32,000 bases of DNA. Origin: an uncultured Chloroflexia bacterium (GTDB taxonomy: Bacteria; Chloroflexota; Limnocylindria; Limnocylindrales; CSP1-4). Shown here piece after piece: positions 3,862 through 30,427 of this stretch. The DNA lies in assembly GCA_963766735.1 (NCBI GenBank), contig CAVYBU010000020.1, positions 13,086 to 45,085 of the forward strand, in the 5' to 3' direction. Positions within the stretch are counted from its first letter, which is position 1. Each line of letters begins with the position of its first letter. Both the position numbers and the translations under genes were made by a program. The notes under the pieces are model-generated. The model worked only from the letters and a program-made list of their open reading frames with translations, did no database searches and was not told the origin of the DNA.

Positions 3862-3897
3862 GCGCCCGGAGGGCTCGAGCGGGCCAGAACGACACCG
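3862..3897 (+). repeat. GC-hairpin element copy A (degenerate)
   Basis: gcgcccggagggctcgagcgggccagaacgacaccg aligns to the consensus GGCGCGCCCGGAGGGnTnCGGGCGCGCAGGAACAACAnCG. The stem is shortened (GCCCG/CGGGC). It lies in the divergent region between the SDR/DUF2867 start and the cyclase start. Confidence 0.55.
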
Positions 3898-3966
3898 CCG
3901 CGAGTGCCGCCCCGCGGAGAGCCCTCGCAGAGGCGGGTTGCTGCCTCGGGTAATCTTCGCCCCATC

Positions 3967-6900
3967 GTGAACTGTCCCAACTGCGGTACCAACAACCCGG
4001 CTGACGGCCGCTTCTGCCTGGAGTGCGGCGCGCCGCTCGGTGGGTGTCCGGCGTGCGGCGCCGTCAATCCAACCGGCGCGCGCTTCTGCGGCACCTGTGG
4101 AAAGCGGTTGCTCGAGGCACCGGACGGTGCCTCGAGCGCGACGGGCGCCTCGCCGGAGGGCGTGCCGGTGAGCGAGATCGGATCGCGGGCAACCGCGCCC
4201 GCCTCCGGGCAGGGTCCGGGCTCCGAGGGGGTCGGATCAACCGAGCGGCGCATGGTCACCGTGCTGTTCGCCGATCTTGTCGGCTTCACTGCCCTCTCGG
4301 CGAGTCGCGACGCGGAGACGGTCCGCGAGATCCAGGGTCGCTACTTCGAGCGAACGCGGGAGATCCTCGGCCGCTACGGCGGCTCCGTGGAGAAGTTCAT
4401 CGGCGACGCCGTGATGGCGCTGTGGGGCGCACCCGTCGCCCACGAGGACGACGCCGAGCGGGCCGTCCGCGCAGCCCTGGACCTCGCGGACATGGTGCCG
4501 GCCCTCGGTCGAGAGTCGGGCGTGGAGGACCTCCAGCTCCGTGTCGGAGTCATGACGGGGGAGGCAGCCGTGGTCGTCGGCGCCGAGGGTCAGGGCATGG
4601 TCACCGGCGACATGGTCAACACCGCGGCGAGGCTCCAGTCGGCTGCGGCCCCGGGAACCGTCCTGGTCGGCGCCGCAACTCGCCTCTCGACCCAGTCAGC
4701 GATCGCCTACGAGATCGCCGGCGATCACCTGCTCAAGGGCAAGGAGGCGCCGGTCCCCGCCTGGCGTGCGGTTCGAATCCTCGCAGAACGCGGCGGCGCC
4801 CGGCGGCCCGAGGCCCTGGAGCCGCCGTTCGTCGGCCGGGCGGACGAGATCCGCTTTCTCAAGGAGCAGTTCCATGCCACGGGTCGCGAGAGACGGGCTC
4901 GGCTGATCTCGCTCGTCGGCCAGGCGGGGATCGGCAAGAGCCGGCTCGCATGGGAGCTCGAGAAGTACCTCGACGGCGTCGTTGAGACGGTCTTCTGGCA
5001 CCGTGGGAGGGCACCCTCGTACGGCGAGGGCATCACCTTCTGGGCGCTCAGCGAAATGATCCGGCGGCGGGCTGGGCTGGCCGAGGGCGACGACGCCGAG
5101 ACAACCCGTGCCGCGATCGCCGCGATGGTCGCCCGGTACGTGCCGGATGTCGCGGAGCAGGCCTGGATCGAGCCGCGTCTCTACACTCTCCTCGGGGTGG
5201 GGGAGCCGGTGACCGGCGGACACGAGGAACTGTTCGCCGCGTGGCGGACCTTCTTCGAGCGACTGGCGATCGAGGGCACGGTGGCGCTCGTGATCGAGGA
5301 CCTTCAATGGTCCGACGACGGTCTGCTCGACTTCCTGGAGCACGTTATGGATTGGGCGCGGTCCAGCCCGATCTTCGTCCTGACGCTTGCCCGGCCGGAG
5401 CTGCTGGAGCGCCGGCCGGGATGGGGCGCGAACCGGCGTGGCGCGATCTCCATGCGCCTCGAACCGCTCGCGGACGACGCGATCCGAGAGCTTCTCACGG
5501 GCATCGCCCCCGCCCTCCCGGAGCCGGTCGTCCGTCGCGTCGTGGACAGAGCGGACGGCATCCCGCTCTATGCCGTCGAGACCGTCCGGATGCTCGTCTC
5601 CTCCGGGCGGCTGGTGGCGCGCGACGGCGGGCTCGTGGTCGATGGCGAGATCGCCGAGCTCGACGTCCCGCCGACCCTTCACGCGCTCGTCGCGGCCCGG
5701 CTGGATGGGCTGGCACCGTCCGACCGGGCGCTGCTCGAGGACGCGTCGGTCCTCGGTCAGTCGTTCACGATGACGGCCCTCTCGGCGATGACCGGGGAGA
5801 CGCCGGACACGCTGGCTCCACTGCTCGATTCGCTCGTGCGGCGCGAGATCCTCGCAGTCGAATCGGATCCGAAGGCGCCCACCCGTGGCCAGCATGCCTT
5901 TGTGCAGGCGCTCGTCCGCGAGGTCGCCTACTCGACGCTGTCCAGGCGCGAGCGGCGCGCCCGCCACCTCACGGCGGCCCGCTACTTCGAATCGCTGGTG
6001 GACGAGGAGCTCGCCGGGGCCGTGGCAACCCACTTCGTCGCCGCCTATCACGCCGCGCCCGACGGACCGGAGGGTGAGGCCGTGGGGACGCAGGCGCGGA
6101 TCGCACTCGTTGCCACGGCCGATCGGGCGGAACGACTTGGGGCCCTGAGCCAGGCCATCGACGCCCTTCGCGAGGCGGCCGAGGTGAGCCGCGATGCCGC
6201 CGAGCGGGGGCGCATCCTGGAACGGCTCGGCTACCTCGCCACGGAGGCGTCATCTTCTGACGAGGCGGTCACGGCGCTCGACGATGCGATCCGCGTCTTC
6301 GAAGCCGCAGGCGACCGGGTGGGCATCATCCGGGCGACGGCCGGGCTCATGCTCGCCTATTCGGCGGCGACTCGGATCGCGGAGGCCGTCAGCAGCGGGG
6401 ACACCGTCAAGGCCGAGGGCGAGGCGCTGGTGGAGGAGGTCCTCTCGGCGGGCCCCGGCGGCGCCCGCGACCGGGCGGAAGCCGCGGCAATCTTCGCGGA
6501 GGCGATGGGCCGCGTGGAGTTCCGGGCCCAGCGCCCCGACACGTCGATCGAGTGGTGTGACCGGGCGCTCCGCATCGCAGAGCCGCTCCGCCTCGACGAG
6601 GTGATCGCGATGGCCCTCACCACGAGGGGCACCGCCCTCAGCCATGGTGGCCGGGCACGGGAGGGCGTGGCGCTCCTCGAGGGCGCCCTGCTCGACGCCC
6701 GCTCGCACGGCCAGCACCTGGCAGCGCTTCGAGCTGCCAACAACCTCGCCTCGAACCTGACCCTGACCGACCCGCGTGCGTGCCTGGACCGGATCCGCGA
6801 GGCGCTCGCCCTCGCCCACCGGCTCGGCTTCCGCGCGTTCGACGGCTATCTTGCGGGCAACGCCGTGGGCGCGGCCGACTCGACGGGTGAATGGGACCTC

Positions 6901-30100: not shown

Positions 30101-30341
30101 CGATCTGGCCGCCCTCCCGGAGGGCGACCTGGCCGAGCTCGATCGCCTCGAGGCCCTGGCGGGCCAGGAGCGCGTCGACGCCGCCGTGGCCCTCGCGACA
30201 AAGGTCACCGAGACCGACCACCTCGTCCTGCCGTTCGGCTACCGCGTCTACCCCATGTACCTCGGCGCCGACGTCGGCTGTGCCTTCGTGCAGCCGGCGA
30301 TTGGGGCGGTCGACCTGCTGAGCTTGTGCCGGAAGCCCTGA
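27150..30341 (+). CDS. Receptor-type class III nucleotidyl cyclase: cytoplasmic cyclase domain, one TM helix, beta-propeller-like repeats, family-5 solute-binding-protein (DppA/OppA-like) domain
   Basis: 1063 aa, with GGAGG upstream of the ATG.
- Cyclase: RTFLIADIRGYTTYT...LLELRGDEALVVF...GIGLDAGEA...YRGSALNLAARLCGQAGPGETL.
- TM helix: LLAAGGVGLAALALVTVVVSGAL.
- Repeated LDPATG/W-containing strands.
- SBP_bac_5-like block: YTFAVRPGWKFSDGQALTAETYRSSIERAL...NPNYAG.... Confidence 0.8.
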   Translation: MTNADAPEPGSADGPTEPPGVLPPGARAEAELRTFLIADIRGYTTYTQENGADAAAELAGRFAAIVREVVTAHDGFLLELRGDEALVVFVLARHALRAALELQSRFAAELARGVGIGLDAGEAIPVEGGYRGSALNLAARLCGQAGPGETLASEAVIHLAAKVEGVGYADPRTYRLKGIEQPIRAMHIVVPELGSKKPIRYGGDGRRADRRLLAAGGVGLAALALVTVVVSGALGGSGGAAPSPSGAAASGSPSPVASPELVAYEDLPAIAYLDPATGQATSVKQVDERIESVAFDDGAFWLSSPPFTNIVALDPATHERIRTVSHPVATPQDIRVADGIMWVDDFDRPRVVGVDVATSRVVHDYDLPSEDGGGTAGLAFADGSLWVGTRHSEELFRLDPATGDVEATIPVASPVLASDGDLLIAQSSGKLHRIDTARNVVLWSTAEITAPDIWTAVAFGGGYIWVSDDTRGTVTKVEPTTGKVVRVFDVGVGALPMAAAGNTLWVAVQDAGRLVAIDMTTGETRDVDIGHFIGGLAASDSELLVSLDRTGDDVIAHLSGDVLTITAPTFPFHDPDPARNGSFQGRQAAYATCAGLLRYADMPAPEGWALVPEVAVALPDVSADGTTYTFAVRPGWKFSDGQALTAETYRSSIERALSPELDSWFGRRYAPPLVGLQAYLDGTATHVEGIAVDGERITFTLAEPAGDFLDLLTLPWFCPVPTGTPAVPNLDPTPPFPSAGPYYLAEHLSAELAVFKRNPNYAGDRPQPFDAIVFREGIEPGTAVSLVDAGAYDAVADETGELSVQSALARTWGPGSDNAVAGDQRWFGGARPATGFLALNPADPLLKDPQVRRAISLALDRSALAAPSNETPSDRLLSPAVRGSDLSDPPVPAPDLEAARALMAGRTGTLVLATGPEGECATCDARANAVVGQLAAIGLTVEIKRHPWAELGAAITAPDSTVDLWLEPVWADYPDPVAMLRGLHDLAALPEGDLAELDRLEALAGQERVDAAVALATKVTETDHLVLPFGYRVYPMYLGADVGCAFVQPAIGAVDLLSLCRKP

Positions 30342-30388
30342 TCGTGACGTGGCGCGCGATCGCGCGATCAGTGGTCGGGCCTGGACCT

Positions 30389-30427
30389 GGCGCGCCCGGA
30401 GGGATCCGAACACGCAGGAACAACACG
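30389..30427 (+). repeat. GC-hairpin element copy F (3' stem arm degenerate)
   Basis: ggcgcgcccggagggatccgaacacgcaggaacaacacg. The 5' arm, loop and tail are conserved. The 3' arm carries G-to-A changes. It lies between convergent genes (stops at 30341 and 30569). Confidence 0.75.

Follow-up and report, generated by a model that had tools for sequence, protein, structure and literature searches.

In Dehalococcoides, tandem islands at ssrA are marked by a 20-bp direct repeat and an adjacent conserved 15-bp motif, and many of these ssrA genomic islands (ssrA-GIs) are without an integration module and have been interpreted as cis-mobilizable elements (McMurdie et al. 2011, PMC3146451). In Prochlorococcus, tycheposons are integrated successively at one transfer RNA (tRNA) gene, with partial tRNA copies between them (Hackl et al., bioRxiv 10.1101/2020.12.28.424599). 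The present analysis concerns a 32,000-nucleotide (nt) stretch of DNA (the window; G+C content about 70%) from an uncultured Chloroflexia bacterium of the Limnocylindria lineage (contig CAVYBU010000020.1, positions 13,086 to 45,085), in which a 40-nt GC-rich element resembling a hairpin recurs in a single orientation. The copies are probably attR-type attachment (att) repeats, left as small cassettes, most of them lacking an integrase, were inserted site-specifically in succession at a tRNA-Arg(UCG) gene. The ssrA-GIs are the closest described case, followed by the tycheposon-seeded islands of Prochlorococcus.

A repeat carrying the 3' end of tRNA-Arg(UCG)

The full consensus of the element is TGGCGCGCCCGGAGGGCGTCGGGCGCGCAGGAACAACAAC. 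In an alignment of 109 copies (at most nine mismatches), conservation was high over positions 1 to 39 and at background level just outside, with sharp edges at position 1 and positions 39/40. This bears out the description, in an earlier note made from the window sequence alone, of a discrete element with unrelated flanks, and the tail AGGAACAACA was as conserved as the stem, as that note had also stated. Missing from the note was the tRNA identity of the left half, on which an understanding of the element depends. Two parts make up the element. Positions 1 to 16 match, in exact reverse complement, the 3' end of tRNA-Arg(UCG) (its last 16 nt, CCCTCCGGGCGCGCCA) and span the 3' strand of the T-stem, the 3' strand of the acceptor stem, the discriminator base and CCA; positions 17 to 40 form the conserved terminus of a cassette. 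On the minus strand, the whole reads 5'-GTTGTTGTTCCTGCGCGCCCGACG|CCCTCCGGGCGCGCCA-3'. At the same relative place, several loci hold TGGCGCGCCCGGAGGGATTCGAACCCCC..., an intact tRNA-Arg(TCG) gene in reverse complement. Contiguous identity with the host's own tRNA was exactly 16 nt in 23 of 29 element/tRNA pairs, and element position 5 agreed with the nucleotide-72 variant of the host tRNA (G72 versus C72 genomes) in 28 of the 29, the opposite hairpin arm being left uncompensated when it did so. An internally deleted tRNA gene was ruled out as a source, the tail not being a tRNA leader.

No compensatory double change was present in any of the nine stem pairs among 103 distinct copies. The 24-nt cassette end includes GCGCGCCCG, the complement of the acceptor strand, which accounts for the appearance of a 9-bp hairpin; selection seems not to act on the hairpin as a structure. 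Considered as DNA, the junction is laid out like a simple recombinase core site, a variable 8-bp spacer separating two inverted 9-bp arms, and the protein-binding site that had been suggested earlier would be loosely right in the sense of a DNA site recognised by a protein.

The window was scanned with nhmmer using a profile hidden Markov model (HMM) trained on 87 copies from other genomes, and five significant copies were obtained (E-values from 1e-13 to 8.5e-5). The same five-member direct-repeat family (18014, 23302, 23464, 26399 and 30388) was recovered by a de novo repeat search of the window, and the consensus given in the earlier note matched at 18015 and 26400 when up to three mismatches were allowed. 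Seven copies had been claimed; these five stood, and those at 3862 and 2167 (a 'half copy'; profile HMM E-value 0.27) were not significant. The copies and their anchor are as follows, with coordinates beyond 32,000 given as window equivalents.

18014-18053, plus strand: copy B (nhmmer match 18014-18052, E-value 2.4e-12), TGGCGCGCCCGGAGGG then CGTCGGGCGCGCAGGAACAGCAAT; outermost significant copy of the array, between the stop of a VanW-family gene (17962) and the start of a TrkA_N/RyR gene (18152)
23302-23341, plus strand: copy C (nhmmer match 23302-23340, E-value 7.6e-10), partly decayed
23464-23503, plus strand: copy D (nhmmer match 23471-23497, profile positions 8-34, E-value 8.5e-5), a partial match
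26399-26438, plus strand: copy E (nhmmer match 26399-26437, E-value 1.1e-13), a perfect match to the consensus of the earlier note
30388-30427, plus strand: copy F (nhmmer match 30388-30426, E-value 6.3e-9), between convergent genes
about 32286 and about 34470: two copies in the continuation of the source array
about 37329: truncated copy in the same continuation
about 40315-40391, minus strand: the anchoring tRNA-Arg(TCG) gene, about 8.3 kb past the window end
3862-3901, plus strand: reported copy A (nhmmer E-value 0.14, score 8.1), not significant, a weak resemblance

All five significant copies are intergenic and on the plus strand, in co-directional (B, C and D), divergent (E) and convergent (F) contexts, so for these the statement that copies lie between genes and read one way whatever the gene direction holds. 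Copy D, 22 nt past the stop of a minus-strand GDSL-lipase gene, has a decayed left arm and retains the right arm and the start of the tail. In copy E, located in the divergent region between an extracytoplasmic function (ECF) sigma gene (minus strand) and the gene at 27150-30341 (plus strand), the loop holds ATTC, which is tRNA T-loop sequence, and in copy F the right arm is decayed toward the tRNA sequence (ATCCGAAC). Reported copy A was not matched at up to three mismatches to the consensus and may have arisen by chance or be a copy that decayed long ago. The perfect stems of B and E were confirmed, with folding energies of -21.8 and -23.8 kcal/mol (z-scores of -2.0 and -3.8), respectively; for C, D, F and A, folding was no better than that of shuffled sequence. 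No U tract (T run) was found 3' of the hairpin on either strand, and orientation was independent of gene direction, in line with the view that the element is not a canonical intrinsic terminator.

A total of 185,579 species-representative genomes (GTDB) were scanned with a degenerate core pattern, yielding 113 stretches, about 30 of which were chance matches lacking the flanking consensus; the remainder had the full 40-nt consensus. Carriers were nearly all metagenome-assembled genomes (MAGs) labelled uncultured Chloroflexia, Candidatus Limnocylindrales or Limnocylindria (a class of Chloroflexota), and same-orientation arrays were present on about 200 contigs of Limnocylindria-type Chloroflexota. 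One of the loci from the genome scan, L044, overlaps the window, which places the source among the MAGs of this group. Copy number was low, from 1 to about 8 per genome at one tRNA-anchored locus. On the 13 contigs of at least 1 Mb with matches, including two complete chromosomes, all matches were within one stretch of at most 24 kb and in a single orientation; the copies are clustered at one locus, not dispersed.

ARAGORN, applied to 82 element-bearing GTDB loci, predicted 24 tRNA genes, every one of them tRNA-Arg(TCG), and in all 29 element/tRNA pairs from these loci the element was 0.4 to 6.5 kb downstream of the tRNA 3' end in direct orientation. An independent metagenome scan gave 141 copies on 119 contigs, with 13 tRNA-Arg(TCG) genes; the copy was again downstream and direct in each of the 19 pairs, and orientation was uniform on all 18 multi-copy contigs. 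The orientation that the earlier note had considered unlikely by chance is thus non-random, and its uniformity comes from all copies being direct repeats of a single tRNA 3' end, an explanation that takes the place of the strand- or replication-polarised element offered in the note. The tRNA-Arg(TCG) gene of the source genome was found to the right of the window on the minus strand (L115, 692-768), as the model had predicted, and beyond it is the same M23 peptidase gene that neighbours the tRNA on its 5' side in other genomes.

Some observations concern assembly and annotation around the anchor. Position 1 of the 2.69-Mb representative MAG contig (L044/L115) is copy F (window 30388), and window positions 1-30387 are not on that contig; a second contig of the same MAG (L040, positions 1-8000) begins inside an array. 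Fourteen of the 141 metagenome copies were within 60 nt of a contig end, and assemblies seem to be interrupted at the repeats. In two metagenome arrays (L163, 1807-1904; L220, 2296-2393), ARAGORN called a 98-nt 'tRNA-Pro(tgg)' in the position of the anchor; it may be a miscalled or interrupted tRNA-Arg gene.

Synteny breakpoints, crossover zone and cargo

The 500-nt flanks of all copies were compared between species-level genomes. Homology was confined to the left flank in 46 copy pairs and to the right flank in 32, and no pair shared both. When metagenome copies were included (n = 250), the corresponding numbers were 93 and 71, with 27 pairs sharing both flanks; nearly all of the latter were at least 99% identical on both sides, and so represent the same population sampled twice. 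Flank homology, up to 98.8%, started or stopped exactly at the element edge, and every copy was a synteny breakpoint between genomes. In the window, the right flank of copy C was homologous to that of a copy in L101 and its left flank was unrelated, and the left flank of copy E was common to L063 and L039, the right flanks being different. Cassettes with 95-99% identity occurred in different neighbourhoods of species-level genomes, having been reshuffled between genomes at exactly the repeat sites.

Crossover was mapped by comparing pairs homologous in the right flank only (flanks 95% identical) with random pairs. Positions 24 to 40 were inherited with the right flank (mismatch 5.3% versus 16.5% in random pairs), which means that the arm and tail travel with the right-hand DNA, and which puts the conserved 24-nt end on the side of the cassette away from the tRNA. 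Position 5 behaved as in random pairs, going with the left flank or the host. Positions 17 to 23 were nearly as variable as in random pairs, and their minority alleles (A17, T18, A22 and A23) are the tRNA's own bases, making the loop a mosaic in which ATTCGAAC comes from the tRNA and CGTCGGGC from the cassette; this variability, together with the tRNA alleles, locates the junction of host and cassette in the 'loop'. A G/C switch at position 30 (AGGAAC or ACGAAC; for example, window 18043) is outside the inferred crossover zone. At positions 18-20 and 30 (for example, window 18031-18033 and 18043), cassettes with 95%-identical flanks differed as often as unrelated copies.

Between 18054 and 30387, the window holds four cassettes, each assigned to the element on its left, and a remnant of an insertion sequence (IS).

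18054-23301: cassette with the TrkA/RyR gene, a TIR-domain gene and unknown genes
23265-23301, plus strand: remnant of an IS481-family terminal inverted repeat (..GTGTCACCGATGTCGCGACTCAAGTCAC), abutting the CCA end of copy C
23342-23463: empty cassette, about 120 nt between C and D
23504-26398: cassette with a GDSL lipase, a 217-amino-acid protein and an ECF sigma factor
26439-30387: cassette with an SBP_bac_5/PQQ-repeat protein

Across the arrays, copies were spaced from start to start by a median of 1.6 kb (range 147-8385 nt), with one or two accessory genes per cassette. The cargo included GNAT acetyltransferases, dehydrogenases, FAD/BBE oxidases, methyltransferases, serine hydrolases, SRPBCC proteins, ECF sigma factors and cyclase-STAND regulators, in addition to the TIR-domain protein of the window. 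ECF sigma genes recurred as cargo (window 25317-26282, minus strand; L044 4327-4923; L040 208-741; L008 3307-3879), their cluster having 14 members from 13 loci, often with a gene for a putative anti-sigma or propeller protein after them. The TIR-domain gene (20048-21175, plus strand) combines an N-terminal TIR domain with a C-terminal Septum_form-like domain, making a defence or NADase protein possible, and contains four to five tandem 21-nt repeats at 20661-20765. In L040 (4263-4362), only 20 nt, a GTGTTGCTC mirror arm among them, lie between two full elements, forming a cargo-free cassette comparable to the interval between window copies C and D. A separate feature of the window is an exact 393-nt direct duplication (1053-1445 and 7637-8029; near-identical over about 480 nt), which covers most of a 194-amino-acid open reading frame without a Pfam match and brackets a 6.6-kb segment with a GNAT gene, an NmrA-like gene and a cyclase/AAA_16/TPR gene; it may have arisen by recent duplication or be an artefact of assembly.

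Proposed serial insertion and rival explanations

In the favoured explanation, a small DNA cassette would insert site-specifically into the 3' end of tRNA-Arg(UCG) and leave a 40-nt attR-type junction, consisting of the 16-nt repeat of the host tRNA 3' end and the 24-nt cassette terminus. New cassettes would enter beside the tRNA and thereby push older ones outward, and the outcome seen is a tandem cassette array in which each unit is bounded by the same repeat in one orientation. We infer that insertion would be catalysed in trans by a site-specific recombinase, for which the tyrosine class is the most plausible, and that this enzyme may be currently active.

Several results weigh against this explanation. 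Neither the window nor the remainder of the source array has a recombinase gene, and nearly all other arrays likewise lack one. A tblastn search of about 1.4 Mb of array-bearing DNA, with XerD, the L070 integrase, gamma-delta resolvase and Bxb1 integrase as queries, returned only L070 and L154. The mirror arm GTTGTTGTTCT was present on the other side in only about 13% of copies (versus 1.6% in controls), and with a symmetrical attP and simple tandem accretion it would be expected at the majority of internal junctions. In the tRNA the spacer is ..AAT|CCCTC, unlike the common ..ACG|CCCTC, a mismatch that is awkward for a tyrosine recombinase requiring identical overlap regions, and neither a circular intermediate nor an excision event was observed. 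Classical tyrosine-integrase islands do exist at the same tRNA-Arg in L070 and L236, with a 47-49-nt repeat reaching the anticodon loop, and given this repeat length their integrases are not obviously the movers of the 40-nt cassettes.

Tyrosine recombinases were found only in L154, L236 and L070; no CcrB/DsiB-type serine recombinase was detected in the arrays, no tyrosine recombinase flanked the tRNA in 24 loci, and when 625 neighbouring proteins were clustered in search of a recurrent mobility gene, only cargo families and an IS481 transposase recurred. L236 has three tyrosine-recombinase genes (7755-11466) around its tRNA-Arg(TCG), two just downstream and one upstream, and its 9.6-kb island carries RHS/Ntox44 toxin cargo and a 47-nt partial-tRNA repeat (403-449). 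Integrases related to those of L236 are located beside tRNA-Gln in L237-L239. In L154, the tRNA-proximal arm of an integrase island is separated from the tRNA side by a cassette of the 40-nt type, and the same arm abuts the tRNA directly in L236; since the island arm and integrases of L154 follow the 40-nt element and not the tRNA, the 40-nt-type cassette must have been inserted later and on the tRNA-proximal side, an order that speaks for the insertion model. The L154 integrase family was considered as the cassette enzyme and, its own islands using the 47-nt repeat or tRNA-Gln, set aside as no more than a possible candidate. A scan of viral contigs for the element gave one chance match only.

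A more far-reaching form of the insertion model, which we put forward only tentatively, is that the arrays are an integron-like gene-cassette system of Limnocylindria-type Chloroflexota. The tRNA-Arg 3' end would then be the fixed insertion site and the 40-bp palindromic junction (9-bp inverted arms, variable 8-bp spacer) the cassette-borne recombination site, and an unlinked putative recombinase acting in trans would capture, excise and exchange cassettes of one or two genes between species. If true, this would be a second, independent solution to cassette capture, with a defined minimal site.

The main rival to site-specific insertion is a target-site duplication made by a transposase, which we regard as unlikely. 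Non-autonomous DDE-type transposons would home to the tRNA-Arg 3' end and generate a 16-bp duplication, and the conserved 24-nt part would be one transposon end. Such a host-derived duplication would explain why positions 1 to 16 always match the host tRNA, and an element of comparable habit is present in the same arrays: an IS481-family IS with a 400-amino-acid rve/HTH_32 transposase inserts right after the CCA of tRNA-Arg or of the repeats, and an intact copy in L078 (1941-3271) has a 15-bp target duplication, CCTCCGGGCGCGCCA. Remnants or footprints of this IS were beside about 15-20% of copies, including copy C of the window, and truncated copies, a 46-bp remnant with only the terminal inverted repeat, and TG-type excision footprints were common in the arrays (L115 6648-7340; L015 5075-5133). 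A small gene start on the minus strand (MSRDI..), noticed beside some copies, was actually the terminal inverted repeat of the same family. The inverted GTTGTTGTTCT at the opposite side of some copies also speaks for a transposon; however, most copies show no conservation of the other cassette end, the would-be tip (positions 17-20) is the most variable part of the element, the 24-nt end has no similarity to the IS481 terminal inverted repeat, and no matching transposase recurs in the arrays. Viewed as a miniature inverted-repeat transposable element, the element has a direct repeat compatible with target-site duplication, a second end recognisable in about 13% of copies, and hypervariable positions 17-20.

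A functional RNA is a very improbable account of the repeat, whether as a terminator without a U tract, a hairpin stabilising mRNA, or a tRNA-like CCA minihelix on the minus strand (RNase P/CCA-adding enzyme). Transcribed from the minus strand, the element would indeed give an acceptor-stem hairpin with CA after it, in 78 of 89 copies one or both neighbouring genes end toward the element, and the hairpins of B and E are very stable; however, those of C, D and F are no better than shuffles, there is no covariation, and a covariance-model scan of the whole window against Rfam, a search the earlier note had proposed, gave no match at an E-value of 1 or below. The gene contexts (34 with both neighbours in the direction of the element, 17 with both opposed, 27 convergent and 11 divergent) show an orientation independent of genes, and the synteny breaks at every copy would be left unexplained. 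The regulon operator or RNA hairpin proposed in the note fails likewise for want of a gene-orientation rule, compensatory changes (103 copies) and an Rfam match. An RNA role could be a secondary, incidental property. The repeat was also considered as an ECF-sigma promoter, with GGAAC as the -35 box and the ECF sigma gene beside copy E, and this was rejected because no -10 box was found at constant spacing and orientation was independent of genes.

Comparably improbable is that the repeats are passive homology anchors, between which RecA-dependent exchange or deletion would occur after DNA uptake without a dedicated enzyme. The lack of a linked recombinase and the occurrence of cassettes with 95-99% identity in different neighbourhoods of species-level genomes would be accommodated, but not the same 24-nt terminus on every new cassette, the exact match to the tRNA 3' end, or the fact that arrays always start at the tRNA, and 40 bp is a marginal length for efficient homologous recombination. 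A family of repetitive extragenic palindromes (REPs), spread by a REP-associated tyrosine transposase (RAYT) or IS200-type enzyme or kept as a structural or regulatory hairpin, is the least credible reading: although 102 of 109 copies are intergenic, the palindrome is GC-rich, gene 3' ends are enriched (convergent contexts 30% versus divergent 12%) and an IS targets the element, as some IS do REPs, the 1 to about 8 copies per genome are confined to one tRNA-anchored locus (a stretch of at most 24 kb on contigs of at least 1 Mb, contrary to the dispersed family suggested earlier), the repeat includes a tRNA 3' end, the stem has no compensatory changes and a left arm tracking the host tRNA without right-arm compensation, and no HUH/RAYT gene cluster was present among the 625 neighbouring proteins, which cover array neighbourhoods only.

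Comparison with described systems

With serial insertion at the tRNA gene, an unexplained repeat becomes a means of mapping precisely a hypervariable region of gene cassettes in a soil and freshwater lineage that is abundant but uncultured, and for which the literature searched held no paper mentioning both Limnocylindria and an integrase. The tag formed by the tRNA-Arg 3' end and the 24-nt terminus allows the flexible gene pool to be extracted from metagenomes, and the 40-bp candidate recombination site with its mapped crossover zone makes the missing recombinase searchable and testable. Should the enzyme work in trans on cassettes without an integrase, the arrays would amount to a counterpart of integrons anchored at a tRNA gene. 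More generally, a 'conserved hairpin' can be a by-product of the way an attachment site is constructed and not a selected structure.

REPs and bacterial interspersed mosaic elements are likewise short GC-rich extragenic palindromes and insertion targets of certain IS, but REPs are dispersed, present in tens to hundreds of copies and in both orientations, and are not derived from tRNA. The likeness to integrons is greater. Both have arrays of one- or two-gene cassettes with accessory cargo (GNAT, SRPBCC, methyltransferase and hydrolase genes) that are shuffled between genomes, and both have one imperfectly palindromic site per cassette, at the end distal to the insertion point and in uniform orientation. 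Unlike in integrons, the consensus has no RYYYAAC/GTTRRRY core sites, no IntI gene is located beside the insertion point, cassette genes point either way, and the insertion point, a tRNA 3' end, has 16 nt in common with the site. By attC and IntI criteria the element is therefore not an integron, although it works much like one.

Tycheposons resemble the arrays in that newcomers push older elements outward and integrase-less, degenerate remnants build up a hypervariable island (bioRxiv 10.1101/2020.12.28.424599). They are, however, defined by having a tyrosine or serine recombinase and replication modules of their own, whereas the recurrent unit here is cargo-only with a conserved 24-nt end, and no autonomous partner was identified.

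The ssrA-GIs share the most features with the present arrays. Both occur in Chloroflexota as tandem islands downstream of one small-RNA gene, with a direct repeat of the 3' end of that gene (20 bp in ssrA-GIs, 16 nt here) and, beside the repeat, a conserved island-side motif that does not align with the gene (15 bp and 24 nt, respectively). The insertion point is in or beside the T-loop in both, and many units are without an integration module. The differences are that the target here is tRNA-Arg(UCG) and not transfer-messenger RNA, that the units are much smaller (median about 1.6 kb, some of them empty) and almost never carry a recombinase, and that the terminus forms an inverted repeat with the tRNA-derived part. 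Identity to the 3' end of an intact tRNA, a downstream position in direct orientation and a break in synteny at the repeat, three marks of att sites in islands at tRNA genes, were found, and we file the element as the att repeat of a tRNA gene-anchored island array, together with Islander-type islands, ssrA-GIs and tycheposon arrays. New to this group are the very small cargo-only units, the palindromic junction and the conservation of the element across a class-level lineage.

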